Source: Botryllus schlosseri (Eukaryota). From it: 64,000 nucleotides of DNA. Where the stretch lies: the NCBI GenBank assembly GCA_051294905.1, contig CM119373.1:1800001-1864000 (forward strand), given 5' to 3'. Positions 11,379 through 42,613 of the stretch are shown piece by piece. The translations under genes were made by a program, and so were the position numbers. Each line of letters begins with the position of its first letter. The first letter of the stretch is position 1. The notes beneath the pieces are model-generated. The model saw only the letters and a program-made list of their open reading frames with translations, made no database searches and was not told the origin of the DNA.

Positions 11379-12551
11379 TATGATTTAATGTACTATTGTG
11401 TATATATGATTGATAATGGAGTATTCAAGTGAAAATTAAGGACAGGTGGCAAAATTTTTAACCGAGTTAGCTGATAGTCCGGCCAATGACAGATTTGGAG
11501 GTTTGAATCCGACCCGCGTTGCCATTTGAGTTTGACAACCCTGCTCTAAGCTGGGTCGCCATGGCGAGATAGCATAATGGTATGATCCACGGCTGCAACA
11601 CCAATTGGTTGCGGATTCGAGTCTGACCGAGGTCGACTCCAGACTTCCCAGCCAAATTTTAGCGGTGCTAGGCTCCCTTCTTGCGGTTTCTTAAAAAAAG
11701 CCTAGAAGTGGACGTGCTATGAGTGCTCTCAATATTGCAGGCCCCGGGTATTTTCTGCACAGCGATAAATGCATATTTTTAAAATCAAATGCCTCGTGGC
11801 ATTGAATTCAGGACAGTTTGTTTTACATGCAATCGAAATTCAAATCATTGGTAAAACAAAGTATATATTGCAAGACATTAAAAGCCGGTGATTTTGTCTA
11901 TTATAACATTTGAGATTCTATATAGTTGCTAAGATGTAAAGACCGAGTGTCTCATTTCGATTTCCCAAAACCGTTTATGAATACTGACTGAGTGCCGTAC
12001 AAACCTTAATACTGTCGTTATCGAGTGATCACTAGTAAATTATGAAAACTACATAAAGGTAAGCTTTAAAGCTGCCAAACACAGTAGACCTGCCGTCTCC
12101 GTGGATTCAGTCGGACGGATTTACATGCCGATGTATTACTGGCGACAACTTTTTGAAAGATGCAGAGATTGCTATCATCCCATTGTACAGAATTCTACGT
12201 CGAAATCGGCCCCATATATTTGTTACTCAGAAAACAGAGTTTCCAAATAATGTCAGGGAACTAGCTCATAGGTAATTTTACAAATTTCTATTGTGTTTGA
12301 GTGTATTCGATCAAATGAAATCTAGAAGCTTCTACTCGACTCGAGGATCAATTCTCGAATCGGAATCGTATCTCCTGAGCCCTCGATGTCGCTCAGTCAC
12401 CATTGCAATATTATGTTACTTGAAATGATGGCAAAGCAATCGTAGCACAGTAATGTGATACAAATAGTATTTAACCATTTAATGACAGAAGTTACAATTT
12501 CATTTTCGAAGGCTAATGAAAGTAATGTTATACGATATTTTATCATTTTAG

Positions 12552-12719
12552 TTGCAAATGCTCGTTATCATGGACAATTCAATGAATGAAGATGGATATG
12601 AAATACTCGTTCACATTCTGAAGCGGTCAGATTGCAAGGAATTGCAACTCCAATATTGTTGTCTCACCAAGACTAAGTTGCAAGGAGTATTGAACGGATG
12701 TCGGGATCAAAATATCCAG
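12552..12719 (+). CDS. Internal LRR exon A (168 nt, phase 0-0, two ~28-aa RI/NLR-like repeats): LQMLVIMDNSMNEDGYEILVHILKRSDCKELQLQYCCLTKTKLQGVLNGCRDQNIQ
   Basis: Acceptor atcattttag, donor cag|gtgcgt, open frame of 56 codons, LxxLxIxxN and CxxLxLxxCxL motifs. Confidence 0.85.
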
Positions 12720-13473
12720 GTGCGTCATCATGAAAAATCAGTAATATACAAGAAGACATGTCCCTAACGATTCAAAATTGTTCGTCATCCTACATCGCCT
12801 CAAAAAGTATGCAGCATAAAATCGTTCACCGTTTATCCTGGCGTTTACCAATACTCGTCTGAGATTCGAATACCGCAGGCGTTTCGTATTTTGCAACACA
12901 GAGAAGCTTGTACATTTTTGAAATAGTCAACGACGCGACAGGGTGGATATTATCAATATTGGAATATTCTTGACACAAATCTAACTGGTGAGGCCGCTTT
13001 AGTGTTAGATGATGCGGTTCCATGCACCTGTTGTCGTGGCATGGAATTTGGGAATTCTAGACAAACTGTTGCTGATGGAAATGCGGACAATAATTTGCGG
13101 CTTTGGTAAGGCGTCCCTGATCTACAGTGAAGTAATCGGCAGAAAAGGGCCAATGTTAAATTTAGGATTTCAGGCCGCAAATTGGACACAATTTCATACT
13201 TTTAAGTTGCTTATAAATTTGGGTGGAGATAGTCAATCACTGATTGTCCAATTGGGAGGTCAAGAAATAACAGCATGCAATAAAAGTGACTAATAACAAT
13301 TGGCCCACAGCATGATGCATCATTATATATAACTTGCCCCCCCCCCCCGGTTCGAAGATACCCCTCGATCAACTCTACTGGTGAATGGGATCACATGGGC
13401 TGAGAAAGGATTCATGCTTAATAGGAATATGTGAAACTGTTAACATTAATGACGAAATTCATTAGTGAATCTG

Positions 13474-13649
13474 AACAGCTTCTTGGAGCTACATAACTTC
13501 AATATCCGATTGAATAGTATATTCATACTGAAATGAACCCGAATATTTTCGGCTGACACTCGTTAGGGGTAATCGTCAGCAACTAGTGGAGAATTCAAAA
13601 GAACAGCGTATATCAACAATCATAACACAAAATATGACGTCACCAGCAG
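13474..13649 (-). mobile_element. 176-bp solo PLE terminal fragment with a mutated hammerhead (13537-13570, CTAACGA) and a 14-bp TSD
   Basis: Homologous to 49080-49222. Flanked by cattagtgaatctg at 13460-13473 and 13650-13663. Empty site in the paralog at 21648-21661. Confidence 0.85.
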
Positions 13650-16449
13650 CATTAGTGAATCTGGAAGTTTTTCGTTCCCATAACGTGACCACTCGCAATT
13701 TGGGTGCGTGTAGTAAGCGGATATGAAATAATATAGATAAGTCCGGAGCTCATCGGAAATGGACATGGATCCCTCAATATTGGTAGTTGGCGTCCAGCTA
13801 GTTCATCGCGACTAAGCCCTGGAATGCTGCCGTAGGCTACATGATTAATCGATATGCAGCCGTGAATAGTAAAAAGGTTGGCGACCCCTTGGAAATGAAT
13901 TCCAGCTAAGCTTTTCATTTAAGAGAGCTCGTTTCTCATGCACTTGAAATTCAAATCATTCAAACTTTTTTTTATAATGGTGTCGAAGCATATACACTTA
14001 TACAATCTTCCAGCGATTTCAATACCAATTGACAATATATATCAGTATTTTAATAATCTGTAATATGTATTGTGCTGCATCCGGAATATTTCGCGATCGG
14101 TATTTTTCGTTACATGTCGCTACATCTCTAATCGCAAAACCATGTATTCCAAGGCGCCCATTGTAAAATGCCAACATGAAACAAGGTTTTTGTTATCGCT
14201 GGCCACAGCGTCAATATGGGTATGCAATGTATTTTTAAGTATGTCGTATTTGACGAGGTGAAATTGTTCGATTGAAGGTTAACCGAAATAGCAGACTGAG
14301 ATTCCACAAATATCGTGACATTGTGATTTTCTATTTTTTAGCAATTTATGCGTTGCACGAATAAAAACCACATTCATGAATATTTGACTAGAACTGTCAT
14401 TGTACTTGACAGGGAGTACGCGTCATTTGTCAAAATTATGAGAAATAGGCAACATAGCCTAATCTAGTTTTAAGATATCATATTGATAAGTATAGGCTAT
14501 TGATTATGTCATTGCCCAAGTCAAAATAAAACAGCGTTGGATTTAACTTCACTGGTGTTACAGCGGTGGAGCGTAGCACTACGGTATTCACCCTCTTATA
14601 TCGGCGATAAAGATATGGATAAAGGGGACAAAGATGAAACTGACTACACATTCAGGGTGCAATAGAATGATCACTGTTGTTATAACAACTTGCGTCGATA
14701 GCGAAATACCGTGTCACGAGCTCAATTCCAATCAGTCGAAGCGGAGTTATTGCCGTCGCAAAATTTTGGATTTGAATAAAATAGTATTTACGGTGACCGA
14801 TTCTTTAATCATTTATTACAATTGTGCCCACCGTAAATACTATTTTATGCAAATCCAAATTTGTCGACATCAATCACTACGCTACGGCTGGTTTGAATGG
14901 AGCCAAATTTGGTGGACATCGTTTCTATCGACAACCTTACAATTTCATGGGTGAACAGAAAATTTTGAATTTTTTTTTATCAATTCTTATATAATAAATA
15001 AAAAAACTTTCTTCTCCTGTAGCAATGCGGCTACTGGTTGGAATTGAACCAAATTTGGTGTGTAGGCTTCAATTCGGTAATCTAACAATTTTATCAAGTA
15101 GCCAGTAGAATTTGAAAGAAAAAGTCATTTTTGAACACCCCTACTGTACAGTGTACAGACATTTGCTATTCCCATGCGCATAAGATGAACTATGATTTGA
15201 TATTAACGGGTGTGAGTATACACCATGGCACAAGAGACCTGAACGTACCTCATACTTATACCGCGGTATAAATTGAGTGCAATATTTTAATCCAAATTTT
15301 GCATGCACGTAGGATATATGACCTCGATCTCATTATGACTCATGTTTTGTTTTCATGTACCACCCTTTTCGGCCCCTTAGGTGCAAATACACACTATTTT
15401 CGCTAAAAGTGCACTCGAATAAAATATGCATGTTACGCATAAAACGCGTAGTATATTATGTCCATTAGAAATCGGTGTCTACTCTACCAGTTGTAAACCC
15501 AAATGTACGAACGGGCAGTGCATTCATCGATTCGGTATCTCTAAAATTCCATTGTGAGTCAACAAACCTGACTGAAATACGAGGTCACTGCAAATTGGTC
15601 GATTGTCGCTTCATTGCGAAACATTCATTATTTTCAATGAAACATTCTTTCTTTGACGATATAATCAGTGTTTTTCCAAATCGTAACGACCGTAAAAGCA
15701 TTTCAGCACTATTACACGCGGCATTTTTCATTTCATCGCCGATATCCACTAATTGCATATTAATATGAAATTCGCTAAAATATTCATTTATGCGAATGAG
15801 AATCTAGAGTTAGTGATCATTATGCAAAGGTGAATTGCAAGATATGGTCGGAAGTTTCATCGCCCTTATTCTTAAATAGGCAACACAACTGTGAGAAGTC
15901 CATCCGTCTGAAGTATAATTATGCGGTCGTTTTCACAATAAAATATTTTAAATTGATAATAATACAAACATCAAGTCAAGTGTTTAGATGTGCAAATCTG
16001 AATTTATTAGCTATGAAAATTCTGTAACCGAAAATATATAAAAAGGAACGATATTTATCATGTTCCCAGCTATATTCGGATGAACTCTCGCAACTTTCGT
16101 ATCTGATATCTTAAATTGGCTCATTAAACAAACGCTCTGTACGAATTCACATTCATATGACGATAATCAACATATGCGACTCGTAGCTTACATTGTCGTA
16201 AACTTGCTTACCTCAACCAGCCCTCTTGTATATAATTTAAACCAAACGAATATCGTTCATACGTTTATAATTGTATATCGTTGATAAGTAGGTGGGTAGG
16301 GTATTGAACTATATCAATTTTAAACATTCTGAGGTTTCGTATGTTGTCCTCTATTTTGGCTGATATTTAAAGACTGGCTACATCGCCATACTTGCGTAGT
16401 TGAGCAGTTCTGCGTATGCGTGAGCGATACAGCGCCTCTTCATTCCATT

Positions 16450-16613
16450 ACTCCTCGCCACTTAATCCGCGTAAGCCGTGACTTGCGCAAAGTCTAGAAG
16501 TGGGCCGTGCTATAAGTCGGCAGTTGACGAATAAATATGAAGAATATTGGCCTGGTGTGAATGGCCGTAGTAGTTGACAAACACCATGAATATCTCAAAA
16601 CAAACAAACAAAC
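16450..16613 (+). mobile_element. 3' half of SINE A with (AAAC)n tail, inside a GACTT-type hAT remnant (duplicate at 34447-34610)
   Basis: ctcctcgcca...agaagtgggccgtgctataagtcggcag...ggcctggtgtgaatggcc...aaacaaacaaac. Confidence 0.85.
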
Positions 16614-16717
16614 TATTTATTCGTTCGTCGATTCCGAATAAATGGGTACTTCATCTGTATTTAAAACAGTTAGCAAAATGTAATGACTTTGAATCATGTC
16701 CAGTACGTTGAAATTTC

Positions 16718-16865
16718 AACTTGACTTGACTACTGACTTGACTAGTGACTTGACTAGTGACTTGACTAGTGACTTGACTCGTGACTTGACTTGACTTGAC
16801 TTGACTTGACTTGACTTGACTTGACTTGACTTGACTTGACTTGACTTGACTTGACTTGACTTGAC
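16718..16865. repeat. (GACTT)n microsatellite plus 12-bp gacttgactagt units (shorter copy at 34715-34820)
   Basis: Direct reading. Expanded subterminal motif of the 53835-55206 family. Confidence 0.95.
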
Positions 16866-17974
16866 CCGAGTCACCTTTGAAAATCAAGTGACTTGACTTG
16901 ACTCGAGTCAAAATGAATTGGCAACAAAACGTTTCCATGAATCTCGACGAAGTCACAAAATCAATGTAGATACAGGCCAATGGCACACAAAGGCAGACAA
17001 ACGTTTACAGGGGATCCAAATATAAATAAGCAGTGGGACAGTATTGAATGCTTACACATCGGAATTGAATACTATATTGTTCCACATAATTCCATCGTTA
17101 ATAATTCAACGGTATGAAGTGTATGCTCGAGCAGTATAGCTAACCCGTCGCTTCCACAATTGCATGTCTTAAATTGATATTTATCCAAACTTCAAGTCAA
17201 AAATATGGATGTGCGAACCTGAATCTAGTAGCTGTGAAATTCTAAATCCGATATTGATCGAATGAACCCTGCAAGATTGATATCTGAAATCGGTTCATCA
17301 AACAAACGGTATGTGCGAATTCACAATCGTAATATCGAGAATCAACATCTGTGACTTTTCAGTGTCTTCTGATGGGAGTGCAATTCTTCAAAAAATATCA
17401 CAAACCATAACGTATTCTTTATTGTAGTCTTACCATAGCGGTACCCTATATAAAAAGATTGATGTGGCAATTATACAATTCATTTTTTATGTCGAAACAA
17501 TAATACACCGTGTCGACCGGCACTGATATCTTAAGCGTTTCGGCGTCGCGTGCATTCTACGTCATGGCAATCTGCCTATTCATACCAGCTGACTTTCCGT
17601 CGATGGAATGCTGATGCCTCCGTTGAAGCTATTTTCGCTATAGCGAGGAATAGTGTTGTTCAGGACAGACGAATAAGTTTATTTAAAACTACAACAATAA
17701 TAATTTGAAACTGAAATCATTTTCGCATTTCAAAATGCTTTATTCGCGTTCTTCCAAATTCACAGATCAGATCGCCGGCCGCAAAATACAACCTCGCGGG
17801 CCGCCTGTTGATGACCCCTGGTGTTGTGCAAAACGAGCAAAGCTTGATATACAGGCGTTAACCAATCTCTTTGTTATGAGACTCCATTGTGATTTGATAT
17901 GAACTGAACTTTTTGCTGCATTTATTTCTCATTCAAATTTTCATTCGATTTCCAAGTTTTTCCGAATTCAAATT

Positions 17975-18715
17975 CTGATGCTAATTATAATCTAATTTGG
18001 AAAAAAGCTGTGTAGCTTTAATTCTAATTCTAATCTAATTTGGAAAAATTGTATAGCTCTAATTCTAATTCTAATCTAATTTGGAAAAAGCTGTGTAGAT
18101 GTAATTCTAATTCTATTATAATCTGGAAAAAAGCTGTGTAGATTTAATTCTAATTTTAATTTAATTTGGAAAATATGCATAGCTCTAATTATAATTCTAA
18201 TATAATATGGAAAAAGCTGTGTGGATCTAATTCTAATTCTAATCTAATTTGGAAAAAGCTGTGTAGATTTAATTCTAATTTCAATCTAATTTGGAAAAAT
18301 TGTATAGCTCTAATTATAATTATAATCTAATTTGGAAAAAGCTGTGTAGATCTAATTCTAATTCTAATCTAATTTGGAAATAACTGTGTTGATCTAATTC
18401 TAATTCTATTCTAATCTGAAAAAAAGCTGTGTAGCTTTATTTCTAATTTGAATCTAATTTGGAAAAAGCTGTGTAGATCTAATTCTAATCTAATTCGGAA
18501 ATAACTGTGTTGATCTAATTCTAATTCTATTCTAATCTGAAAAAAAGCTGTGTAGCTTTATTTCTAATTTGAATCTAATTTGGAAAAATTGTATAGCTCT
18601 AATTATAATTCGAATCTAATTTGGAAAAAGCTGTGTAGATCTAATTCTAATTCTAATCTAATTTGGAAATAACTGTATAGCTCTAATTCTAATTCTAATA
18701 TAATTTGTAAAAGCT
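17975..18715. repeat. ~42-bp minisatellite (~18 units; consensus tctaattctaattctaatctaatttggaaaaagctgtgtaga)
   Basis: Counted directly. Lies just inside a MITE end (tagttgtccaagt). Paralogs at 9200-9320 and 29870-29990 have about 3 units. Confidence 0.95.
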
Positions 18716-20250
18716 TAAAAATTCTTAGTTGTCCAAGTAAGCGGTGTCATATAAAAGCATGAGTGGGCCTTGCAGCAAGTCAGCAGCTACGGATTTTAAA
18801 TGAAGCACATTGGCCCGGTGTAAATGACCATAGTATTCGACAAATCCCAAGATTACCTCAAAACAAACAAACAAGCGACTAAAAAGGGAGCATAAAAATA
18901 CTCCAACTTCTATCGTCGTTACTGCCACTGATTTAGCGATCCATAACTGTACTCAACAGGCAAATCATCGCATTTTTGCCAATTTCATTGTTCGCGAATA
19001 AAGTCGTTGCTAGAATATAAACCCTATGGTCCGTGATATGTTCTAATGTACTATTATGTATCTATATAATGATAGATAATAAAGTATTCAAGTGAAAATA
19101 CGGACATGTGACAAAATCTTGAAATGAGTTGACTGATGGTCCGGCCTGTGAGAGATTTGAAGGTTTGAATCCGACCCGCGTCGCCTTTTCAGATTCACAA
19201 TCCTGCTCTAAGCTGAATCGCCATGACGAGATAGCATAATGGTATGATCCACGGCTGTAACACCAATTGGTTGCGGGTTCGATGCTGACCGAGGTCGAAT
19301 CCAGAATTCCCAGCCAAGTGTTACAGATTTATCTAGGGCTATGCTCCTCTTAATTCGCCAGATCATCGGTAGTGGTTTCTTAAAAAAGCCTAGAAGTGGA
19401 TCGTGCTATGAGTGCTCTCAATATTGCAGGCCCTGAGTATCTTCTGCACAGCGATCAATGTATATTTTTATAATTGAATGCCTCTTGGCTTTGCATTCAG
19501 GACAGTTTGTTTTACATGCAATCGAAATTTAAATCATTGGTAAAACAGAGTATATATTGCACGACATTAATATTGCACACATTGTCTATTATAATATTTG
19601 GGATTCTATATAGTTGCTGAGTGACGTAAAGACCGAGTGAGTGTCTCACTTCGATTTCCCAAAAGTGTTTATGAATACTGGCTGAGTGCCGTAGAAACCC
19701 TATAGTACTGTCTTTATTGAGTGATCATTAGTAAATTAGTAATCATAAAAACTGCATAACGGTATGCTTTAAAGCTGCCAAAAACTGTAGACCCGTCTCC
19801 GTGGATTCACTCGGACAGATTTACATGCCGATATCCTAATGGCGACAACATTTTGAAAGAGGCAGAGATTGCTATCATTCCAGTCATCAGAATTCTACGT
19901 CGAAATCGGCCCCACATATTTGTTCCTCAGAAGGCCGAGTTTCAAATATTGCCAGGGAACTAGCTCGTAGGTAATTTTACAAATCAATATTGTGTTTGAT
20001 TGTACTCGATCAAATGAAATCTAAAACATTCTATTCGACTCGAGGATCAATTCTCGATTCGGAATCGTATCTTCCTAGCCCTGGATGTCGCCCGGCCACG
20101 ATTGCAATATTATTTTACTTGAAATGATGGCGAAGCAATTGTAGCAGAGTAATGTGATACTAATAGTATTTTACAGTTTATTGACAGGAATTTCAATTTC
20201 ATTTTCGAAGGCTAATGAAAGTAATGTTATACGATATTTTATCATTTTAG

Positions 20251-20418
20251 TTGCAAAGGCTCCTTATCATCGACAATTCAATGACTGAAGATGGATATGA
20301 AATACTCGTTCACATTCTGAAGCTGTCAGATTGCAAGGAATTGGTGCTCGAAAATTGTTGTCTCACCAAGACTAAGTTGCAAGGAGTGTTGAACGGATGT
20401 CGGGATCAAAATATCCAG
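20251..20418 (+). CDS. Internal LRR exon B (168 nt, phase 0-0), paralog of exon A: LQRLLIIDNSMTEDGYEILVHILKLSDCKELVLENCCLTKTKLQGVLNGCRDQNIQ
   Basis: Same splice sites as exon A. 11 nucleotide differences from exon A, no stops or indels. Confidence 0.85.
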
Positions 20419-22151
20419 GTGCGTCATCATGAACAATCCGTAATATCCAAGAAGACATGTCATCTTACGATTCGAAATTGTTCGTCATCCTACTTCGCCT
20501 CAAAGTCATGCAGCACAAAATCGTTCATCATTTATTCTATCGTTTACCAATACTCGGCGGAGGTAATTCGAATACCGCAGGGGTTTAGTATTTTGCAACA
20601 CAGATTACTTTGGACATTTTTAAAATTGTTGACGACGCGACAGCGTAGATATCATCAATATAGGAATATTCATGACATAAATCTAGCCGAAAAGGCCGAA
20701 AGAGTGATTTATCTAGGGCTAGGCTCCTCTTCATGCACCAGATCGGTGGGAGCGGTTTCTTAGAAAAAGCCTAGAAGTGGACCGTGCTATGAGTGCTCTC
20801 AATATTGCAGGCCCTGAGCATTTTCTGCACATCGATCAATATATATTTTTAAAATTAAATGGCTCTTGGCTTTGCATTCAGGACATTTGTTTTACATGAA
20901 ATCGAAGTTTGAATCATTGGTAACTCAGAGTATATATTGCACGACATTAAAAGCTGGTGATTTTGTCTATTATAACATTTGAGATTCTATATAGTTTCTG
21001 AGTGACGTAAAAACCGAGTGAGTGTTTGACTTCGATTTCCCAAAAGTGTTTATGAATACTGGCTGAGTGCCGTACAAACCCTAATACTGTCGTTATTGAG
21101 TGATCACTAGTAAATTAGTAATCCTAAAACCACATATAGATATGCTTTAAAGCTGCCAAACACAGCAGACCTGCCGTCTCCTTGGATTCAATCGGACAGA
21201 TTACATGCCGATATCCTAATGGCGACAACATTTTGTAAGAGGCAAAGATTGCTATCATTCCAGTCAACAGAATTCTACGTCGAAATCGGCCCCACACACG
21301 CGTCCTTGATCTACCATGAGGTAATATGCAGAAACGAGCCGATGTTGCATTTAGGATTTCGGGCCGAAAATTGGGCACACTTTCATACTTTTACGTTGCC
21401 TATAAATTAGGGTGGATAGAGCTATGTCGATCAATGATTGTCAACTTGGGAGGTCAAGAAATAACAGCATGCAACAAAGTGACTGATAAAAATTGGCCAT
21501 CAGCATGATGCACCATTATGCAAAACTTGCCCTCAGTTTTTGAAGACACCCCTTGATCAACTCTACCGGTGAATGCGATCACGGGGGCTGAAAAAGAATT
21601 AATGTTTGATAGGAATATGTGAAACTATCAACAATAATGACGAAATTCATTAGTGAATCTGAAAGTTTTTCGCACTTCGCGCGATCATAACCGTTCCCGT
21701 AACATGACCAATTGACCACTCACGATTTCGGTGCCGGTGCGTGTAGTAAGCGAATATGAACTAATAGATAAGTCTGGAGCTCACCGGAAATGAAGATGAA
21801 TCTCTTAACATCGGTATTTTGCATCCTGATAGTTCATCGCGACTATCCCATGGAATGTGGCCGCAGGCTACATGATTAATCGTAATGCAGCCGTGAATAG
21901 GAAAAAGGTTTGCAACCACTGATTAACCCCTTGGAAATGAATTCCAGCTAAGCTTTTCATTCAAGAGAGCTTGATTCTCATGCACTCAAAATTCGAATCA
22001 TTCAATTTTTTTTCATCCCGGTGTTGAAGCATTTACAATTTGCCAGCGACGTCTAAACTAGTTGACAATACGCAACAGTATTTTAATAATCTGTAATATG
22101 TAGGCTATTGTGCTGCATCCGGAAAATTTCGCGAGCCTTATCTTTCATTAC

Positions 22152-25100
22152 GTGTCGCTATATATCTGGCCGCAAAACCATGTATTCCATGAAGCTCATT
22201 GTAAAATGACAGCATGTAACGAAGTCTATTTAAGCGCTGTTAACGAAACGACCGGCGGACGGTCATATTATCAGTATATATTATAGGATAATAGCCCACG
22301 TTAGAAATCTAACCACCAACGCCGACTGAGTAACGAAAATCAATTTAGTGTTTGATGTTTGACTCAAATGCACTCGGGGGCCAATTTCCAAATTTTTGAC
22401 TACCCTGCGGAACACGACGTCAATATGGGTATTCAATGTATGTTCAAGTATGTCGTATTTGACGAGGTGAAATTGTACTATTGGCCGGAATAGCAGATTG
22501 AGATTCCGCAAATATAGTGAACTTATGATTTACTACTTATTTTACCAATTTACGCGTGGCACCAATGAAAACCACATTCACAAATATTTGACTAAAATTG
22601 TCGTTCTACTAGGCAGGGAGTACGCATCATTTGTCGCAATTATGAGAAATAGGCACCATAACCGAATCTAGGTTTGGGGTCCCATATTGATAAGTGTAGG
22701 CCCGGGGTAGGCAAACCCCGGCACGCGTGCCATTTGTGCCACGCGAAATGATTTTTCATGGCATACCAAATGATTTCACGGAAACGACATATTCATACCA
22801 TGTTTTTGCAAAAAGTGAAACAGAAGTTTTCAAAACGTGAAATGCTCGTAGGCGATCCAAAATTATTATTATTATTTCACATTTTACAGTGGTGCTTCTC
22901 GCCTTTTTCAGGCTATGTGCACCACGACACGAATATTTGTAATGTTCATAAGTCTTTGTCTTTGTGTTAATCTTGGGGACGACTTCTTCATTCTTTCGCA
23001 CATCCAGAGGTCAGTCTCTCTCGCACCAATGCGTCCCCGTCGAGGTCTTTGCTGCCGACTTCTAGGACGGCTCACTTTCAATCTGAGCTTTTTAATGCAC
23101 TGCAACTGCAGTGAGATCGGCAATGGGTAGCCCAGAGAAATCTCCGACGCATAGAGCCTGATGTGTTAATTATGCTGTGGGAACCCCCAATAAATAGATA
23201 AATATATATGTTGTATTTATAAAATGTTTTAAAAATCTATGCATAGTGTACAAAAATGAGTCAACCGTATTAGCAGTTGTGAAAGAACATCAACCGAACA
23301 TCGTTTGAAAACGTTTGGATTCTTTAGTCTAGGAGTGTTATTCACTGTGTAGCCTGCGGGAGTGCAACTACTGAACCGGCATTACGACGCTGGGCATCTT
23401 CACGCTATAGAATACATGACCTAGATATAGAGTTTCGGACAATATCCGACCATGCGACTAACAGGCGGTCTATGCGTTGCCAAAGTGATTGGCGGCGATA
23501 AAACCTTGAAACAAAATAGCCGCTGCATCATGGACAAAACGTTAGACATTGATATGTCCACTGGCAAGGCGCCGAAGTGACCAGCGCCGAATGACCAGCG
23601 CCCGCACCTGCAGCTTGAGTCGCACGTATCAAATGAGATCTGTCAAGGAAAATAATCAGCCCCGTGTCCAAATGCGAATCGTGTTCGTCTCTCGGAAGTA
23701 GAGTCTGGTGTGCACGCGATTCAATATCTCGAGCAACGCCAATCCTTACCGCTTGACTGCGACCTTTGCCGACAAATATAGTGTCAGACCGACCTTAATG
23801 TGACGCCAAACCGATTTGAATGAGACTGTGGGGAGGGGGGAAACATTTTTCATCATCATCAGACCATATCATCGTAGCTACACTGATTGGCCCGTCATTT
23901 ATGATTTATTGGATACGGTTACCAACATAGTGGACTTGGAAACGATCCAATCAACCACACAAGATCGATCATTGCCCAATGGCGCGACTGAAAATAAATT
24001 ATGTAAATATCACGTGAGCCTACATAGAAGCGATAGGTCGGGTACGGTAGTGTCCAAAATTCAATCCCTTCACGGCCAATCAAGAATTGCTGGCGTGACG
24101 AATGGCGTTGCCAGGCGTAGAAAAACGGTTGGTGGTGTTCCTTGCTGCTTGAAACGTTAAATATTAATACATTAAATGTTTGGCACGCAAGCTGGTAAAA
24201 AATCGACATTTTTTGACATTTTGGCACGCTGCACATAAAAGGTTGCCGGCACCTAGTATAGGCTATTGGCCATGTCATTGCCCAAGTCAAAATAGAACAG
24301 CGTTGGATTTTACTTCACTGGTGTCACAGCGGTGGAGCGTGCCATTGCGGCATTCGCCATCTTTAATCGGCCATAAAGCTACGGATGAAGGGATCAAAGA
24401 TGCAACTGGCTGCACATTAAGGGGGCAACAGAATGCTAGATGTTGTTATAACAACTTGCGTCGATAGCAAAATACCATGTCACGAGCTTATCGTCTATTA
24501 CGATCCCCTGGTCACGCGAATAATAATTTTTGCCTCCATGGTTATAAACATGTCACGACACTCCGAGTTACTCGGAGTCGACTCGAATCATTTTCATCTT
24601 GTCACCGAGTCATTCCGATTAATTCAGCGTAAGGTCGCCTCCAACTCCAAGTCACAGATTTCAGTCTCGAATCATATGCGGTTCATGTTTCATCATCAAG
24701 ATTAGGCTATTCTATGTAGGCCTAATAGAAGATCTTCCACCGCATAGTAGCGTTTGAATGTGATGCCATATAGCTAATGTTCTCGTGGATCGCGTGTTCG
24801 AGACCCAGGCTTATATCATTCGGGTTACCGCTATCAAAAATACTGCTGGTGTAAATAGAGAAAACAATGACGTTACTGGATTATTGCAAATTAATCGCCT
24901 ACGAGCAAATTTGCGTGCTTTTTGTGCTATCAAGAAACATCAAGTCGATCCCAAAAAACTCCTAAAACCCAGCCGATACTAACCGAACCCAAGTCACACT
25001 AATCTCCATGCTAATATGCTTTCATCATTTCTGGCCTTATTCACGACACATCGCAGCGTAGATATCTTGACGATTGCGTTCTGCAACAAATTATACCACT

Positions 25101-28100: not shown

Positions 28101-31100
28101 AGTACCCCAAATTCATTTTACATGATTTAAAATAAACCACTACATTCATGGAATCATGAGTCGGTGGATATTTCGCGATGAGCGCGACTAAAAACGTTGT
28201 GATTTAACAGATTTTGTCGAATGTTAGTTTGCAATGAGAAACCAGGAATAATCATATGTCCTTACTACACCATCTGCTGCGAGACCATTTTCTTCAGCGC
28301 CTCAACCGCGTCCAGAGCCAAGTGCCCTCTATTTCGCCCCCTGAGCGTTTCCGCCCCTTCAAAATCCAAGTAGCTCCCTGGGAGGCGATGGAGACAAGGT
28401 TAAGAACCACTGATCTAAATCATCACGAACTATATTGGTAAAATTACGTCTCCTCCAGCTTCATAAACTGCTCATCTTCGACAGTACAATGCTCCCGGAC
28501 GCATAGAAGAGTAGCGTACGACCAGTGTTGCTGATTATAAATTCTGTAGACGGAATTGGGCTCTGAGCTGTCGTAAGAAGTCGTCAGAAACAACATATAC
28601 AAATGCGCGTGGTCGTGTTCGTGTAGTTTTTGCGCTATCACGAAGCAACTAACGATCCAGATTAAACGTTTAAATTCTAATCTTTTCCAAGTCTATATCA
28701 TGGTATCATGCTCAATCTTCTAGAATGATAGATACTTTTGTACTCAGCGCTTCTTTGGAAATTGTGTCAATCATCACACCCATCTCTGATCTGAACATAT
28801 AAAGTGTCATCACCATGTTTTCATCTGCTATCACACTAATCGAATTTTTGAATTGTTCTTATGCTCTAATTTTAATTTTAATTCCAATCTAATTCATGAA
28901 TTGTTCTTATGCTCTAATTCTAATCTAATTTATTGTTTTCCTGAAAATGCCTATTTGACCGCGGCATGTTGCAGCGAGTCCATCTCGCAAAGGGATATCC
29001 AGAGTCAAGCCGCAATTGCATTACTTACACCGTACAGAAATAGTAGTTGTTGTGCGACGAATAATAGCCATACTGGAACAATTGTGACGCTTATCGCCGA
29101 ATCATGTTATTTGTGCCATGAAAATGAATGTTGCAATGTTCATTGATCTTTGCCTTTGGAACTCTTTTTGGACTACTTCCAGTCACGTATCTATTCATCA
29201 TATATCTATCTCGTTTGCATACGACCTCTTCAGTGTCTTTTGCTGACGATTTTCGAAGCTCGAGTTCAATTATTTAAACTGGGCTTTTCGTACGGCACTG
29301 CATACGCAGTGAGTTCAGCTACTAACGATTCGATATTAGGGCTATCCAGACATGTTGCTAGGTGAAAGACTATCTCATCCTAAAGATTGGCTTTGGGGAC
29401 GCCCTATAGCCCTAGTTTTCCAAGCGCCTCGGTGTCGAGTGCACTGTACGTCATGGCAATATCCCTATTCATGCCAGCTGACTCTCCATCGATGGAATGC
29501 TGTTGCCTTCGTTGAAGCTATTTCCGCTATAGCGAGGAATAGTGTTGTTGAGGACAGACGAATAGGTTTATTTAATACAACAACAATAATTATTTGAAAC
29601 TGAAATCAATTTTCGCATTTCAAAATGCTTTATTCGCGTTCTTCCAAATTCATAGATAAGATCGCCAGCCGCAAAATACGACTTCGCGGGCCGCCTATTG
29701 ATGACCCGGGTATAGTGCAAAACGAGCGAAGCTTGATATACAGACGTTAACCAATCTCTTTGTTATGAGACTCCACTGTGGTTTGATATGAATTGAACTT
29801 TTTGCTGTATTTATTTCTCATTCAGAATTTCATTCGATTTCCAAGTAGTTTTTCCGAATTCAGTAGCCAAATTCTAATTGTAAGTATAATCTAATTTGAA
29901 AATGACTGTGTTAATCTAATTCTAATTGTGATCTAATTTGAAAAAAATTGTATAGCTCAAATTATAATTCTAATCTAATTCGGAAATGCTAAAAATTTTC
30001 TAGTTGTCCTAGTCTGCCGCGTAAGTGGCGTCTTATAAAAGCTTATGAGTGGGCCGTGCTGCAGGTATTGTTTGTTTGTTTTGGGGTATTCATGGTGTTT
30101 GTCGACTACGATGGTCATTTACACCAGGCCGACATTCTTTTTATTTTCCGTAACTGCCGACTTATAGCACGGCTCACCTCTAGGCTTTTGTAAGACACCG
30201 CTGACGCGGATGAGGTGGCGAGGAGGAGCCTAGGTAAACCTCCAACACTTGGGTATCGAGATTCCCGTGCTGCAGGTCAGCAGCTACGAAATTTAAATGA
30301 AGCACATTGGCCTGGTGTAAATGACCATAGTAGTCGACAAACCCCATGAATACCTCAAATCAAACAAACAAGCGACTAGAAAGGGAGCATAGAAATACGT
30401 CAACTGATATCGTCGTTAGTGCCACTGATTTAGCGCTCCATAACTGTACTCAACAGGCAAATCATCACAATTTTGCCAATTCCATTGTTCGCGAATAAAT
30501 TCGTTGCTAGAATATAAACCCTATGATCCGTGATATGATTTAATGTACTATTATGTATATATGATTGATAATAAAGTATTCAAGTGAAAATACGGACATG
30601 TGGCAAAACTTTGAAACGAGTTGACAGATGGTCGGGCCCGTGAGAAATTTGAAGATTTTAATCCTACCCGAGTAGCCATTTGAGTTTGACAACCGTTCTC
30701 TAAGCTTAATTGCGATGACGAGATAGCATAATGGTATGATCCACGGCTGCAACACCAATTGGTTGCGGGTTCGAGTCTGACCGAGGTCGCCTCCAGAATT
30801 CCCAGCCAAGTGTTAGAGGTTTATATAGGGCTAGGCTCCACTTCATTCACCAGATCGGCGCTAGCGATTTCTTAAAAAAGGCTAGAAGTGGATTTTGCTA
30901 TGAGTGCTCTCAATATTGCAGGCCCTGAGTATTTTTCTGCACAGCGATCAATGTATATTTTTAAAGTTAGATGCCTCTTGGCTCTGCATTCAGAACAAGT
31001 CGTTTTACATGCAATCTAAATTCAAATCATTGGTAAAACGGAGTATATATTGCACGACATTAAAAGCTGGCGATTTCGTCTATTATAACATTTGAGATCG

Positions 31101-34100
31101 ACCGAGACCGAGTGTCTCATTTCGATTTCCCAGAAGTGTTTATGAATACGGGCTGGGCACCGTTTAAACCCTAATATTGTCGTTATCGAGTGATCACATA
31201 TTAAAATGGCTATCCGGACCACATATTAAAATGCTCCATCTCTAGGGTATTGAAAAAATCGGATACAGGTCCAAAATATGGCCCAGAAAAATGCCCGCCA
31301 TTTTTGCCCCTACCTTGGCTAGGTAACGTGTCTAGCCGTTTTGAAAAGCTTATTAAATCGGCTGTTCACCGTTGCTATTACAGCGTTAACACGCATGTAG
31401 TGTGCACGACGAAACCCTTGTTACCCAACTCTCGAAAAGATGTACTTCCTGCCTTTGATGCAAGTAATGTTGTTTACCAATACAAGTACCACTGTGATAG
31501 TAGGTATGTAGGATGTACGACCACTCGCAATTTGGGTGCGTGTAGTAAGCGGATATGAAATAATATAGATAAGTCCGGAGCTCATCGGAAATGGACATGG
31601 ATCTCTCAATATTGGTAGTTGGCGTCCAGCTATAGTTCATCGCGACTAAGCTCTGGAATGCTGCCGTAGGCGACATGATTAATCGATATGCAGCCGTGAA
31701 TAGTAAAAAGGTTGGCGACCCCTTGGAAATGAATTCCAGCTAAGCTTTTCATTTAAGAGAGCTCGTTTCTCATGCACTTGAAATTAACATCATTCAAACT
31801 TTTTTTTATAATGGTGTCGAAGCATATACACTTATACAATCTTCCAGCGATTTCAATACCAATTGACAATATATACCAGTATTTTAATAATCTGTAATAT
31901 GTATTGTGCTGCATCCGGAATATTTCGCGATCGGTATTTTTCGTTACATGTCGCTACATCTCTAATCACAAAACCATGTATTCCAAGGCGCCCATTGTAA
32001 AATGCCAACATGTAACAAGGTTTTTGTTATCGCTGGTAACGAAACGACCGGCGAACGGTCATATTATCAATATCTATTATAGGATAATAACTCATGGTAT
32101 AAATCTAGCCGACTTAGTGAAGAAAATCGATTTAGTGTTTGATGCTTGACTCATATGTACTCGGGATCCAATTTCCTAGTTTTTGATCACCCCGCTGGCC
32201 ACAGCGTCAATATGGGTATGCAATGTATTTTTAAGTATGTCGTATTTGACGAGGTGAAATTGTTCGATTGAAGGTTAACCGAAATAGCAGACTGAGATTC
32301 CACAAATATCGTGACATTGTGATTTACTATTTTTTAGCAATTTATGCGTTGCACGAATAAAAACCACATTCATAAATATTTGACTAGAACTGTCATTGTA
32401 CTTGACAGGGAGTACGCATCATTTGTCAAAATTATGAGAAATAGGCAACATAGCCGAATCTAGTTTTAAGATATCATATTGATAAGTATAGGCTATTGAT
32501 TATGTCATTGCCCAAGTCAAAATAAAACAGCGTTGGATTTAACTTCACTGGTGTTACAGCGGTGGAGAGGTAGCACTACGGTATTCACCCTCTTAAATCG
32601 GCGATAAAGATATGGATAAAGGGGTCAAAGATGAAACTGACTACACATTCAGGGTGCAATAGAATGCTCACTGTTGTTATAATAACTTGCGTCGATAGCG
32701 AAATACCGTGTCACGAGCTCAATTCCAATCAGTCGAAGCGGAGTTATTGCCGTCGTAAAATTTTGGATTTGAATAAAATAGTATTTACGGTGACCGATTC
32801 TTTAATCATTTATTACAATTGTGCCCACCGTAAATACTATTTTATGCAAATCCAAATTTGTCGACATCAATCACTACGCTACGGATGGTTTGAATGGAGC
32901 CAAATTTGGTGGACATCGTTTCTATCGACAACCTTACAATTTCATGGTTGAACAGAAAATTTTGAATTTTTTTTTATTAATTCTTATATAATAAATAAAA
33001 AAACTTTCTTCTCCTGTAGCAATGCGGCTACTGGTTGGAATTGAACCAAATTTGGTGTGTAGGCTTCAATTCGGTAATCTAACAATTTTATCAAGTAGCC
33101 AGTAGAATTTGAAAGAAAAAGTCATTTTTGAACACCCCTACTGTACAGTGTACAGACATTTGCTATTCCCATGCGCATAAGATGAACTATGATTTGATAT
33201 TAACGGGTGTGAGTATACACCATGGCACAAGAGACCTGAACGTACCTCATACTTATACCGCGGTATAAATCGAGTGCAATATTTTAATCCAAATTTTGCA
33301 TGCACGTAGGATATATGACCTCGATCTCATTATGACTCAGGTTTTGTTTTCATGTACCACCCTTTTCGGCCCCTTAGGTGCAAATACACACTATTTTCGC
33401 TAAAAGTGCACTCGAATAAAATATGCATGTTACGCATAAAACGCGTAGTATATTATGTCCATTAGAAATCGGTGTCTACTCTACAAGTTGTAAACCCAAA
33501 TGTACGAACGGGCAGTGCATTCATCGATTCGATATCTCTAAAATTCCATTGTGAGTCAACAAACCTGACTAAAATACGAGGTCACTGCAAATTGGTCGAT
33601 TGTCGCTTCATTGCGAAACATTCATTATTTTCAATGAAACATTCTTTCTTTGACGATATAATCAGTGTTTTTCCAAATCGTAACGACCGTAAAAGCATTT
33701 CAGCACTATTACACGCGGCATTTTTCATTTCATCGCCGATATCCACTAATTGCATATTAATATGAAATTCGCTAAAATATTCATTTATGCGAATGAGAAT
33801 CTAGAGTTGGTGATCATTATGCAAAGGTGAATTGCAAAATATGGTCGGAAGTTTCATCGCCCTTATTCTTGAATAGGCAACACAACTGTGAGAAGTCCAT
33901 CCGTCTGAAGTATAATTATGCGGTCGTTTTCACAATAAAATATTTTAAATTGATAATAATACAAACATCAAGTCAAGTGTTTAGATGTGCAAATCTGAAT
34001 TTATTAGCTATGAAAATTCTGTAACCGAAAATATATAAAAAGGAACGATATTTATCATGTTCCCAGCTATATTCGGATGAACTCTCGCAACTTTCGTATC

Positions 34101-35511
34101 TGATATCTTAAATTGGCTCATTAAACAAACGCTCTGTACGAATTCACATTCATATGACGATAATCAACATATGCGACTCGTAGCTTACATTGTCGTAAAC
34201 TTGCTTACCTCAACCAGTCCTCTTGTATATAATTTAAATCAAACGAATATCGTTCATACGTTTATAATTGTATATCGTTGATAAGTAGGTGGGTAGGGTA
34301 TTGAACTATATCAATTTTAAACATTCTGAGGTTTCGTATGTTGTCCTCTATTTTGGCCGATATTTAAAGACTGGCTACATCGCCATACTTGCGTAGTTGA
34401 GCAGTTCTGCGTATGCGTGAGCGATACAGCGCCTCTTCATTCCATTACTCCTCGCCACTTAATCCGCGTAAGCCGTGACTTGCGCAAAGTCTAGAAGTGG
34501 GCCGTGCTATAAGTCGGCAGTTGACGAATAAATATGAAGAATATTGGCCTGGTGTGAATGGCCGTAGTAGTTGACAAACACCATGAATATCTCAAAACAA
34601 ACAAACAAACTATTTATTCGTTCGTCGATTCCGAATAAATGGGTACTTCATCTGTATTTAAAACAGTTAGCAAAATGTAATGACTTTGAATCATGTCCAG
34701 TACGTTGAAATTTCAACTTGACTTGACTAGTGACTTGACTAGTGACTTGACTCGTGACTTGACTCGTGACTTGACTTGACTTGACTTGACTTGACTTGAC
34801 TTGACTTGACTTGACTTGACTTGACTTGACTTGACTTGACCCGAGTCACCTTTGAAAATCAAGTGACTTGACTTGACTTGACTCGAGTCAAAATGAATTG
34901 GCAACAAAACGTTTCTATGAATATCGACGAAGTCACAAAATCAATGTAAATACAGGCCAATGGCACACAAAGGCAGACAAACGTTTACAGGGGATCCAAA
35001 TATAAATAAGCAGTGGGACAGTATTGAATGCTTACACATCGGAATTGTATACTATATTGTTCCACATAATTCCATCGTTAATAATTCAACGGTATGAAGT
35101 GTATGCTCGAGCAGTATAGCTAACCCGTCGCTTCCACAATTGCATGTCTTAAATTGATATTTATCCAAACTTCAAGTCAAAAATATGGATGTGCGAACCT
35201 GAATCTAGTAGCTTTGAAATTCTAAATCCGATATTGATCGAATGAACCCTGCAAGATTGATATCTGAAATCGGTTCATCAAACAAACGGTATGTGCGAAT
35301 TCACAATCGTAATATCGAGAATCAACATCTGTGACTTTTCAGTGTCTTCTGATGGGAGTGCAATTCTTCAAAAAATATCACAAACCATAACGTATTCTTT
35401 ATTGCAGTCTTACCATAGCGGTACCCTATATAAAAAGATTGATGTGGCAATTATACAATTCATTTTTTATGTCGAAACAATAATACACCGTGTCGACCGG
35501 CACTGATATCT
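22152..35511 (+). repeat. Segmental duplication, copy 2
   Basis: Matches 1-17531. Lacks 2624-2764, the 5636-6978 insertion and 10850-13686. Retains 32037-32198, which copy 1 lacks. Confidence 0.97.
31198..31518 (+). mobile_element. Duplicated copy of the Penelope-like fragment, cut within the GIY-YIG domain by a 2837-bp deletion
   Basis: Near-identical to 10529-10849, then jumps to the equivalent of 13687. Confidence 0.88.
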
Positions 35512-37266
35512 AAATGTCTAATATAATGAAAATCGAAACCACTAAGAATAATATTGTTAAAATTTCGTCTCCACCAGCTTCAGAAACTGCCCATCTTCGA
35601 CAGTACACTACTCCCGGGTTCTTATTATGGCGTGGCGGAAATTGCAAAAGCCACCAAATGCGCCGAAGTGTGTGTACCGAACCCAATTCCAACGTCCACG
35701 TTTACGGTTTAATCTCTTGTATTCTTACCAACGCACACTCGGGGTCAACATCCAGTTACGACTAAAAAGAGTGGTGGGATAGCGTAGTGGTGTAATCCAC
35801 TGCTGCAACACCTATGGGTTACTGGTGCGAGTGCGACCAATTTCGACACTAGAATTCCTAATTAAGTGTTGGAGGTTTAGCTAGGCTCCTCCTCGCCATC
35901 TCATACGCGTAACAGACTTGGACAACTAGATAATTCCTCCAAGCACCTTAAAACATCATAGTACATTGATTCTGAGCATCTAGGAAGCCATTGGAAGCTG
36001 TAAAAACAGTTGCAAAAGTTGCAAAAACTTGCCCTAATAATAACATATTATCTACATATCAAGGTGAACGGCGAGATTTGTGGAATTAAATTAAATGTAG
36101 AATAGTAACAGGATCCAATCTGATAACCCAATCCATAAACTATATTTACAGAGTTACGATAGGACATCGTGATCCGGATCGAGCATGATATATTGAGGTG
36201 CCGTTAGATGTTTGTTAGGAATATGCACAAGGAAAATAAAGGAAGTATACCACATTTACAAAGATATATAGATAAAAGGGGTAAGAAAAGAGATACAGAT
36301 AAAAGGTGTTATCAGATTAGATGTTATATAATATCAATTGGTCTTGTAACTTAACCAAGTTAAGAATTGTACAGGCAAATTGAGATCCAGAAGCGTGACC
36401 CGGGGTGATATTCTCATCGATATAATATTAGGAATGCATTTAGTTTTTATCGATAAAAGTATAGTAATTTACGGAATAGTATGTCACAGAACGGCATTGA
36501 TATCACAAATGGAGCGAGATTACTGGAAATATTGCGCTTCTGTTAGCGTCACCCAGCACATGACAGCAATTTAGCTAATAAATTGTGTCGTATTAGATTT
36601 CAGAGGACAGAAATCAGGATACTCTGGGCAGAGAGTAGGCAGGTTTCGCCGTTCGCAGGATCGATTCAGTTTCTAAATCTCATGACGGATCACTACAGTG
36701 TAATTAGGATGATAAATAAATGCGTAAAATCCACAGTCATAAATAGTTTTCGCTTCATTCAAGTGGTCGGATAAATGGAGATTTTAGATAGGTAAAGCAA
36801 TATGATATGCAACAAATGAAACAAGCATCAAGTTATTTACGACACGCATAAGACACATGAATTGTATATCACCCTACGTAACAAAATTTCTGTTTGGCCA
36901 CCTTTTTGATGCCACTAGATATATATGTTTTATGATAGTGCTAAGTTCGAAAATTCAAGTATTTTTTCGTATAATCGATACTTTCCTATACTTAACACCG
37001 TACTTGTTTTTTCTGACTTATTTATAAAAATACCTAGTTTCAAAAGAGTTAGTGTAGTACAATTTGGACCAATTGAGAATTAAATATTATTGACAAATAA
37101 CTGTTTATGGTTTTATGTCAATTTCACCATTAATATATACTAATACTTTGGGTCCCACAATACATTATACGATAAGTCTTCTTTTAGGCATCAGTTCAAA
37201 TTGCCAAAGAGTTTCCTTGTGGCAATTGATATCAACTAATTGTGTTTGATAAGCGTTCCTTTAAGC

Positions 37267-38700
37267 CAGTGGTTCCCAACCGGGGAGGAATTCCCCCCTT
37301 GGGGGGAATTTTGCAATTTTTAGGGAGGAATTCCACTTTATAATTGTAACGGATTTCCCAAATTGTTCATGTCCGAACTGTCATGTAGTCAACCAGTTAT
37401 ATCCGAATGTATGCTCCTCATGGCTGTTTTTTGTTTGCTGAAAGTATGTTCAAATGCTATTTGAAATCTCTTTTTCACATACAAATCCCCCCCCCCTTTT
37501 TTCAAACTAGTTCAGATATGCTGCAGTTGGCAAGACAATTTTGTAGGCCAGCGACGGCCTCTCAATCAAATATATCCTAAGCGAGCAAATGTTGTGCCGA
37601 ATCTATCATAACAAGGCCTCTAGTGAAAGTATTTATCTTATATTTTCAAGTCAACATTTTCAGACAGTGACAAAATATTCCAACGTCATCGATTCAAGTC
37701 AAAGAACAGCCACCCGATCGAAAAGAGACATATTAAACTTGGTGCAATGTTGCCGAAACGTAATGGGTGTCCTAAATTTCAATGAGCTCCAGCAGGGAAT
37801 CTGATCACGTGTATGTTATATATCAGGGCTCTAACTAAATCACGAGGCTCCGAGTCACAAGTCAATCTCACTTTCATAGTTTTGACTCGAGTCAAGTCTA
37901 GTCATTTTCAATTCACCATTGAGTCAAGTCTGAGTCCAAGTCACCGAGCTGAGTGTCGAGTCCGAGTCATGATATTATGACTCGAGTCCAAGTCACACCC
38001 CAGTCCACACTGTTTGGTGATATTGAATGATGATTTGGATTTATCATATACTAATTTTCCTCACTTGGAGCAGTTTCTTGTCGCATTGTCAATTACCAGG
38101 ATCAATAGACGAAATTCCAATAGGGTGGTCGCTTTACTGTTCTTCGAAATTACAAAGAAATGTCGGTCTTGGCCGTCTCATAGTCTCGAGTCATATGGTT
38201 TGGTTCGAGTCATGCACAATGACTCGAGTCCAAGTCGAGTCAATACCCAGATTGTCTCGAGTCGTTTCCGTAATTTGAGAAAATGACTCGAGTCTGGTCA
38301 ACCCTCCTATATATGAAAGCGCCAATATTATTGGCCAAATGCATTGGCCAACTTGAAAAAAAATCGCGAGACCAGCAAATTTATGCATACTGACTTTTCA
38401 CAACAGTTATATTAGCGATTGGTGCATGGTAAGCCGAAAACACAAATGGAAGTGTGGGGGTTTGTTGAGTCAAGCGTTCCAAAATTTGGGACCAAGACCA
38501 TTGTTTTTGACGGTCTTCAAAGTGTTATTACAGCGCTGCTAGAAACAAACACTCGGTACCGCCCGTCTTTTTCTCTCAAAGGGTGTTAGCGCGGTAAAAA
38601 TGACCTTTTTTAATCATCGGCCAGATTTATCCTAAGGGGGGAATTTTGGCTTAAATTTCGGCCAAGGGAGGCACGAGATGAAGAAGGTTGGGAACCACTG
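37267..38700. mobile_element. Non-autonomous hAT element just upstream of LRR exon C
   Basis: Perfect 15-bp TIR cagtggttcccaacc, perfect TSD ctttaagc. Confidence 0.93.
37824..38306. mobile_element. GACTCGAGTC-rich hAT-like MITE nested in 37267-38700
   Basis: Ends caggg...accctc, TSD ttatatat/ctatatat. Inverted homolog of 47548-48001. Confidence 0.8.
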
Positions 38701-38858
38701 CTTTAAGCTTTTCCCTCTCACGTTTCGGTATGCCACATGTTGAATATCGTACATTTGTTTTGCCGCGAACATATTCAGGTACCTAACCACGTATGCATAA
38801 CCTATTATGCAATATGATTTGCGAAGTACAATGCAAGATTTGTGCATGTTGGTTTCAG

Positions 38859-39029
38859 ATTCCGGAACTTACGATTGATTGGTCCCATTCGATTGCAACT
38901 GAAGATGATATATCAGCACTGTGCGACATGATGATGTTTGCTGTACAAGAAATGACTCTATGGAATTGGAACATTGATGCTAAAGGCAAGCAGAGACTAC
39001 TGGATACACTTCAGCTCGAAAATTCAAAG
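38859..39029 (+). CDS. LRR-like exon C (171 nt, phase 0-0): IPELTIDWSHSIATEDDISALCDMMMFAVQEMTLWNWNIDAKGKQRLLDTLQLENSK
   Basis: Acceptor ggtttcag, donor aag|gtcgga, 57 open codons, IxxLxI and VxxMxLxxWxI repeats. Same phase and similar size as exons A and B. Confidence 0.75.
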
Positions 39030-39512
39030 GTCGGATTTGGCATTCGAAACTCGATATAATAGTTTCTTACTGCTACTACTTGTTATTTATTGCTGCTGTT
39101 TAGTTACCATGTATCTCCAATCTACAGCTGCTGGCCCATGGGTCCCATCTGGATTGCCAGGTATCTCGCTTGGTTCTGAGGCGCTAATCTGTTACTGCAC
39201 GCATCATTAAAATATCGTTTTTGAAAGCACATGTGCACTGTGCAGCGCTGCATTCCTAACGTACTATAGGAACAATAAATATGTCACACAAGGTAACTGT
39301 GTCTTCCTCATTTGTCGACTTGTAAAATTCGTGGCGCTGGGTATTCCTCACATCACACTGGATCTGGGAGGTATGAACTTTTGGCGGAAAACGTTCTCAC
39401 TCTCCAATTGTAATCACGGCTTTACTTATGAAAGTGTATTTGAGATGGTCTGGGTTTTGACATATTTATCGCCGTAGTAGAATTCCCACATCCATTGCAG
39501 ATATAAAATGAA

Positions 39513-39547
39513 ACCCAAAGCTTTTCGAGCTGACTCTCTTCAAGGGC
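39513..39547 (-). ncRNA. Variant minimal hammerhead motif (second subfamily)
   Basis: Reverse complement reads gccc-TTGAAGA-gag(tcag)ctc-GAAA-agct-TT-gggt. 3-bp helix II, palindrome AAGCTT. C3U and U17 may impair cleavage. Confidence 0.65.
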
Positions 39548-42575: not shown

Positions 42576-42613
42576 CGTATCATCATTTTTACCAAATCAA
42601 GCCATCGATATAC

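Follow-up and report, generated by a model that had tools for sequence, protein, structure and literature searches.

The window analysed here is a stretch of 64,000 nucleotides from Botryllus schlosseri (contig CM119373.1, called C3 below; C3:1800001-1864000) that carries three exons, A, B and C. These are probably the last leucine-rich repeat (LRR) exons of a tunicate NLR gene of around 148 kb, the middle one of three tandem paralogues, whose repeats have been diversified in the DNA. Exon positions below 64,000 are given in window numbering and those prefixed C3 in contig numbering. One exon type has been multiplied by unequal crossing-over of blocks of exon plus intron, both within and between the paralogues, and recombination or gene conversion in and near the exons reshuffles two variable patches. 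The exons would be spliced mostly in order to give one long solenoid, with around 20 repeats here and around 42 in the next gene; its strands would line a concave face that may bind a microbial or damage ligand, and ligand binding would switch on the NACHT domain. The diversity of the receptor would arise mainly in the germ-line DNA, between paralogues and probably also between haplotypes, and would be subject to diversifying selection.

The exons and the gene to which they belong

The original prediction, made from the sequence of the window, described three same-strand exons of 168, 168 and 171 nt; all lie on the forward strand, and each is indeed free of stops in phase 0 with AG at its 5′ side and GT at its 3′ side (Table 1). 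The splice contexts of A and B, said to be identical, match exactly over 57 nt upstream and 15 nt downstream; the exons themselves show 93.5% identity at the nucleotide level and 86% at the protein level. The view of all three as one cassette array holds for A and B but not for C, which is a different, single-copy exon type and no copy of either. Exon C3:2033580, in the next gene, has the same sequence as exon A, and C3:2056786 differs from A by 1 nt. Exon B duplicates exon C3:1798569, which lies shortly before the window begins; 3 nt differ between the two, and 2 of these changes are non-synonymous, at strand positions 32 and 34.

As a control for chance, open frames of 168 nt between AG and GT (or of 171 nt) were counted in the window and then passed through a filter for strong splice sites. 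On the forward strand A and B alone passed among 13 open 168-nt frames; 2 of the 6 on the reverse strand also passed, and of the 171-nt frames 0/17 did, with exon C among the failures. Since reverse-strand frames pass and C fails, the filter by itself is not specific, and the reality of these predicted exons rests on homology rather than on splice-site strength. In the case of C, the donor follows codon 57 in all 14 homologues in the genome, with GT in 14/14 and G at +5 in 13/14. An alternative in which C is a terminal exon reaching the stop at 39057-39059 has in its favour the pyrimidine found at donor +3 in 11/14 homologues; it is the less likely reading in view of the +5 G and of read-through lengths of 58-103 residues. 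Because the donor codon is fixed, the +5 G kept and the read-through lengths unrelated, it is probable that C is a genuine internal exon of 171 nt. For the tentative last coding exon that follows C, no counterpart was seen when approximately 500 nt on the 3′ side of 11 other homologues were compared.

That each exon encodes two LRRs, as had been proposed, is well supported by several lines taken together, with no single strong match. Among the 16 PDB sequences listed for a profile of 20 exons, the best match was 4r5d, a designed LRR protein (E 3e-7); NLRP14, RanGAP, NLRP1 and ribonuclease inhibitor were matched weakly (E 0.12-1.4). The predicted structure of the exon A peptide is beta-alpha-beta-alpha (pLDDT 85.5); the strands span residues 3-7 and 30-34, the helices 13-25 and 40-52. 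A search of the Atlas with a repeat segment from Styela clava, a tunicate relative described below, gave LRR-class leads only (0.87-0.90). Neither a NACHT exon nor exon A found a match in word-index searches of proteins, which covered longer proteins only.

The region examined around the window (C3:1400001-2194000, 794 kb with no N) contains three tandem forward-strand NACHT exons, at C3 1422, 1697 and 1929 kb, and it is to the middle one that the window's gene belongs. This exon (C3:1696729-1697861) lies around 115 kb upstream of A and matches Pfam PF05729 with 51.9 bits (E 1e-13). Two of the three exons were scanned and both match Pfam NACHT (1e-13 and 3e-13); the third was recovered by a genome-wide NACHT search, and the genome holds at least 94 NACHT matches. 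The order of exons is common to the three genes: short N-terminal exons come before NACHT, which is followed by a pair of helical-domain exons, a pair of single-copy LRR exons, the array and C. The length of around 148 kb for the window's gene is counted from its first recognised exon, and the paralogues are 150-250 kb in size. A 16-exon model, fifteen exons through C plus the candidate last exon, makes one open frame of around 1,160 codons. The NOD2_WH domain after NACHT scores below the cut-off in both the window's gene (E 0.1) and the next gene (4e-4), and the two exons following NACHT match residues of a Styela NLR. The original prediction placed A-C in the 3′ part of an NLR-like gene with its NACHT exon upstream, and the Pfam match, the common strand, the colinear order and the open frame to C all bear this out. 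The NLR label for A-C, as the end of a NACHT-LRR gene, is therefore supported, the linkage to NACHT being drawn from the DNA.

The nearest named NACHT relatives (31-34% identity, E 3e-36 to 3e-52) are four uncharacterised proteins of Styela clava: XP_039248824.1 (2508 aa), XP_077976001.1, XP_077966284.1 and XP_077976309.1. In these, NACHT and NOD2_WH are followed by units of around 56 residues like those of the present exons, and the exon profile matches 29, 9 and 1 of them in three of the four proteins. The genome also contains GH6 matches, which likewise point to a tunicate, since tunicates have a cellulose synthase that bears a GH6 domain. In contrast to the present gene, where short motif exons stand before NACHT and no death fold was recovered, three of the four carry Pfam Death domains.

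The search for both NACHT and a death fold that had been suggested for the upstream DNA thus succeeded for the former, with no death fold found in the upstream regions. Upstream of NACHT in the window's gene just two exons are recognised, a motif exon of 93 nt and a linker exon of 72 nt. One or two exons of around 31 codons, phase 1-1, with an N/V/G-rich motif precede each of the three NACHT exons; the conserved short exon of the window's gene lies at C3:1691668-1691760. Genome-wide, the motif is matched 147 times at E up to 1. A same-strand copy is found no more than 25 kb upstream of 45/94 NACHT matches, compared with 3 downstream and 0 on the opposite strand. Because no death fold turned up upstream, the signal may pass via this short conserved N-terminal exon, which would be a candidate, RHIM-like signalling end. 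The motif has no Pfam match, RHIM included, and its resemblance to RHIM is presumed.

More distant A-type and C-type exons also lie at C3:25.4, 33.0-33.3 and 6.0-7.2 Mb, at C1:23.6-25.0 Mb and on C7, C11 and C12, where they mark other NLR clusters of the same subfamily.

Duplication, recombination and selection in the array

Across the three genes there are 27 A-type exons, 5, 7 and 15 in order, and 2, 0 and 3 intact exons of a further kind, Y-type. The A-type copies are 86-100% identical and 27/27 are open with AG/GT, one of them carrying an in-frame 6-nt deletion (162 nt). The proposal that the number and identity of LRRs differ by duplication is supported by these unequal copy numbers in the three paralogues. 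The earlier account of the window had overlooked three truncated LRR-exon relics and an internal duplication of around 13 kb at 98-99% identity. These relics are among 15 truncated Y-type relics in the cluster, which have been carried along in the duplicated blocks. The longer relic has an in-frame GTGTGT after codon 30 (35578-35667); speculatively, this could act as the donor of a 90-nt, single-repeat exon of phase 0-0.

Blocks of 2-20 kb bearing exons, 95-99% identical, are shared within and between the genes, and 183 block pairs of at least 1.5 kb reach at least 93% identity. The fraction of sequence in repeats of at least 1 kb and at least 95% identity is 62% at C3:1750-1840 kb and 83% at C3:1940-2167 kb, and 0% at C3:1601-1750 kb. 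The window's gene shares its blocks with the next gene, and yet the NACHT exon of that next gene is nearer to the first gene (84.6%) than to the window's gene (78.3%); the paralogues are therefore mosaics.

Table 1. Exons, exon relics and duplicated blocks in the window
Feature	Position	Strand	Remarks
Exon A	12552-12719	+	168 nt, phase 0-0; A-type two-LRR exon, sixth of the gene's seven A-type exons
Exon B	20251-20418	+	168 nt, phase 0-0; seventh A-type exon of the gene
Exon C	38859-39029	+	171 nt, phase 0-0; single-copy C-terminal two-repeat exon, conserved donor
Candidate last coding exon (tentative)	39293-39325	+	10 codons and stop; present only in the three local paralogues
Y-type relic	7796-7840	+	Acceptor intact, stop after 15 codons; 7 copies in cluster
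Y-type relic, duplicate of the 15-codon relic	28459-28503	+	Acceptor intact
Longer Y-type relic	35578-35673	+	Acceptor intact; homology over around 30 codons, stop in frame after codon 44; 8 copies in cluster
Intron block	1-10849	+	Copy at 22152-31518 in three pieces, around 99%
Intron block	13687-17534	+	Copy at 31519-35514, 98%; copy lacks the 10850-13686 segment bearing exon A
Block shared with next NLR gene	1-18587	+	Part of 20.1-kb block C3:1798481-1818587 (exon A inside), 99.2% identical to C3:2042713-2062822
Block shared with next NLR gene	38701-51731	+	13.1-kb block around exon C, 97.3% identical to 3′ end of that gene

Diversification at the DNA level is well supported. In a four-gamete test of 21 biallelic sites in and around 24 exons, all four gametes were present in 88 of 210 site pairs, and such failures were rarer for sites within 30 nt of each other (19% against 42%, p 0.0004). 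The flanks of 25 exons were also compared, in 300 pairs. Upstream flanks were at least 95% alike in 31 of these and the downstream flanks matched as well in only 6, intron indels contributing to this figure. Exons 2042801 and 2103033 differ at 17/168 nt, synonymous sites included, and their flanks differ by 1.0% and 2.4%. Since the difference lies in the exon and little of it in the flanks, this pair points to gene conversion limited to the exon. Exon halves also recombine, reshuffling the two variable patches.

Selection was assessed by counts in 24 of the 27 A-type exons, the two divergent copies of the first gene and the 162-nt copy being omitted. It is clear that variation is concentrated at a few residues: 3, 5, 7, 30, 32, 34 and 35 each show 4-7 amino acids and the framework columns are mostly fixed. 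In LRRs the alternate residues of a strand face the concave, ligand-binding side. The ratio pN/pS is 1.69 at the 10 positions exposed in the LRR register, compared with 0.33 at the other 46. Extra amino-acid and synonymous alleles number 34:2 at the exposed positions and 23:14 at the rest (Fisher p 0.001), and none of 100,000 column sets drawn at random reached 34; these p-values are made optimistic by recombination and shared ancestry, and the exposed set was chosen from the LRR register after the alignment had been seen, both of which weaken the case for selection. The model of exon A, which is independent of that choice, places 6 of the 7 most variable residues at alternate strand positions. 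The locus has repeat exons that recombine within and between paralogues and are probably under diversifying selection, as in an exon-shuffling receptor.

Other repeated elements occur in the cluster. Inside the duplicated blocks lie a minisatellite with a 42-bp unit in up to 17.7 copies, at 17974-18712, 9204-9318 and 29876-29980, and (ACTTG)n tracts, at 16719-16865 and 34716-34840; the minisatellite is also found near some block borders. Introns of the first NLR gene contain inverted repeats at C3:1437317-1450819 and 1452203-1471342 (6.3 kb at 99.6% and 4.1 kb at 98.4%), one of which ends at the acceptor of an LRR exon. An intron of the third NLR gene (C3:2134946-2144594) has a 4.5-kb inverted duplication at 99.1%, with two opposed copies of a 394-codon open frame that carries three BIR domains (inhibitor of apoptosis). 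Transposon frames are present at C3:2022887 (DDE_Tnp_4) and C3:1704961 (DUF4371), and window frames 10536-11141 (+), 49251-49763 (-) and 57256-57681 (-) are presumably decayed retrotransposon endonuclease or reverse-transcriptase tails.

Expression, splicing and competing explanations

For window 12400-12900, which spans exon A, no run was listed as holding RNA. Of 24 runs listed, four were used: three bulk RNA runs (6-13% of each) and one contig set were aligned at 85% likeness to window 20050-39900, a stretch that excludes exon A and hence the A-B and A-C joins. Word shares of 0.09-0.51 in other runs were set aside as evidence of polymorphism. Several of the results may count against the explanation preferred here. 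The bin of exon B (662 nt) has a mean depth of 0.27, 0.12 and 0.42 in the three runs, equivalent to one or two reads in a total of 7-13 million, and reads from sister exons are able to map at 85%. Repeat-poor intron bins have a depth of 0-0.5, a range which contains that of exon B. Neither the 15 joints listed (out of 146) nor the 24 loose ends listed (out of 3417) fall at an exon border, and intronic repeats dominate both. To these may be added that Pfam gave no match for exons A, B and C, with no LRR in single exons; that the top fold match of the exon A model, the LRR of NLRP1 (TM 0.73), is not significant at E 0.15; and that comparison of the upstream regions yielded no start codon or first exon. 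The exon C bin has a depth of 1.2-2.7, which may include repeat-derived reads, and the contig set spans every one of the 30 bins, as DNA would. In the three bulk samples expression is very low at most.

Intronic repeats at window 22698-23359 and 24684-26007 reach an RNA depth of hundreds-fold, from reads that stem from other parts of the genome. Near 25374 the loose ends resemble tRNA, perhaps from a SINE; ARAGORN found no tRNA in the window.

The alternative that survives best, though we consider it doubtful, is ordinary alternative splicing, in which exons would be skipped combinatorially on top of the variation in DNA and the Y-type relics would serve as early-stop exons. All LRR exons keep the frame, their splice sites are near-identical, the introns are 0.7-26 kb long, and the acceptors of the relics are intact. 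There are also precedents: skipping of human NLRP3 exon 5, demonstrated by RNA (PMC6642158), and splicing variants reported for algal ROCO genes (PMC11378527). The symmetry of frame is, however, no evidence of splicing, since duplication in the DNA already requires it. Furthermore, the RNA joints listed include no exon junction, and in one Styela relative with four RefSeq isoforms these are set apart by single residues or by an early end, and none skips LRR units.

A second alternative, which we regard as improbable, is neutral churn: a barely expressed or decaying, recombination-prone locus in which exons are passengers in blocks, with no selection for specificity. The very low RNA signal would fit this, as would the multiplication of the 15 truncated relics as efficiently as intact exons and the fact that the arrays are mostly duplicated intron DNA. 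Against this, every A-type exon has remained open with intact splice dinucleotides, and pN/pS is 0.33 in the framework and 1.69 at strand positions.

Splicing of the Dscam type, in which one or a fixed few A-type exons would enter each transcript by mutual exclusion, is very improbable. A homogeneous cluster of 7 or 15 exon variants between single-copy exons, variable at the presumed binding face, does resemble such a system; however, there is no frame trap, no intron is too short to splice (the shortest in the array is 726 nt), Y-type exons are interspersed in the array of the third gene, and a Styela model, itself a prediction, has around 29 units in one chain, though no search was aimed at docking or selector pairings in the RNA. 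Finally, an assembly artefact, with the blocks being haplotypes or collapsed repeats misplaced in tandem, is hardly credible: several blocks are around 99% identical, as alleles would be, but there are up to 7-8 block copies with distinct indels and mosaic borders, the 794 kb are without gaps, the three NACHT exons are merely 78-85% alike, and 22/24 compared exons are distinct.

Relation to known receptors and significance

Modular LRR exons in NLRs are already known, and the three exons alone would be ordinary. Vertebrate NLRP genes have NACHT followed by frame-preserving exons of two LRRs, 171 bp in NLRP3 (Hoss et al. 2019, PMC6642158). The present gene shares with these, and with the ribonuclease-inhibitor class of LRRs, NACHT followed by frame-preserving two-LRR exons that could in principle be skipped. 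It differs in that its array exons are 168 and not 171 nt and begin just before a strand, and in that its copies are recent, exchanged among paralogues and hypervariable on the strands; nor was any pyrin-sized exon (PYD) seen in the upstream regions compared. The locus is thus NLRP-like in exon layout and no member of NLRP.

In mode of diversification it is closer to the brown-algal ROCO LRR-GTPases and NB-ARC-TPR genes. These have one exon per repeat unit and recombine within and between genes in the repeat region only; relics of dead exons lie in their introns, and they are under diversifying selection (Zambounis et al. 2012, PMC3341825; Teng et al. 2024, PMC11378527). The present locus likewise has repeat exons that recombine inside and among paralogues, exon relics and probable diversifying selection, whereas the algal exons are single LRRs of 72 nt, the algal relics lie on the opposite strand, and the nucleotide-binding domain and lineage are different. 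The domain here is NACHT and neither ROC-COR nor NB-ARC, so the locus diversifies like the brown-algal genes and is no member of them. Fungal NLRs of the HET-E/NWD kind, which have internal repeats of high conservation, are also NACHT receptors; their paralogues exchange and homogenise repeat units, which vary at exposed sites. Their WD40, TPR or ANK repeats lie inside an exon, unlike the LRR exons here, which are split by introns of 1-26 kb.

What is less ordinary is that near-identical cassettes move in multi-kilobase blocks between paralogues of 150-250 kb, with exon-limited conversion reshuffling the presumed ligand face. The same mode has been described for the brown-algal and fungal receptors. 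We found no open-access paper whose title or abstract start describes such diversification for a tunicate NLR, subscription journals being outside the scope of the search.

A bolder form of the proposal is a long shot. It would have NLR sensors continually rebuilt from a shared pool of exon cassettes by unequal crossing-over and by exon-limited conversion of two hypervariable strand patches, with exon skipping, the relics acting as early stops, multiplying the output per cell, and with an RHIM-like amyloid motif signalling in place of a death fold. If true, a chordate invertebrate, from the sister group of the vertebrates, would keep a large NLR repertoire whose LRRs are anticipatory and VLR-like yet belong to an intracellular receptor, and which may even vary from cell to cell in one animal. 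The locus offers a direct test of how receptor diversity arises in an animal without adaptive immunity, in which copy number among haplotypes, selection and isoforms can all be measured.

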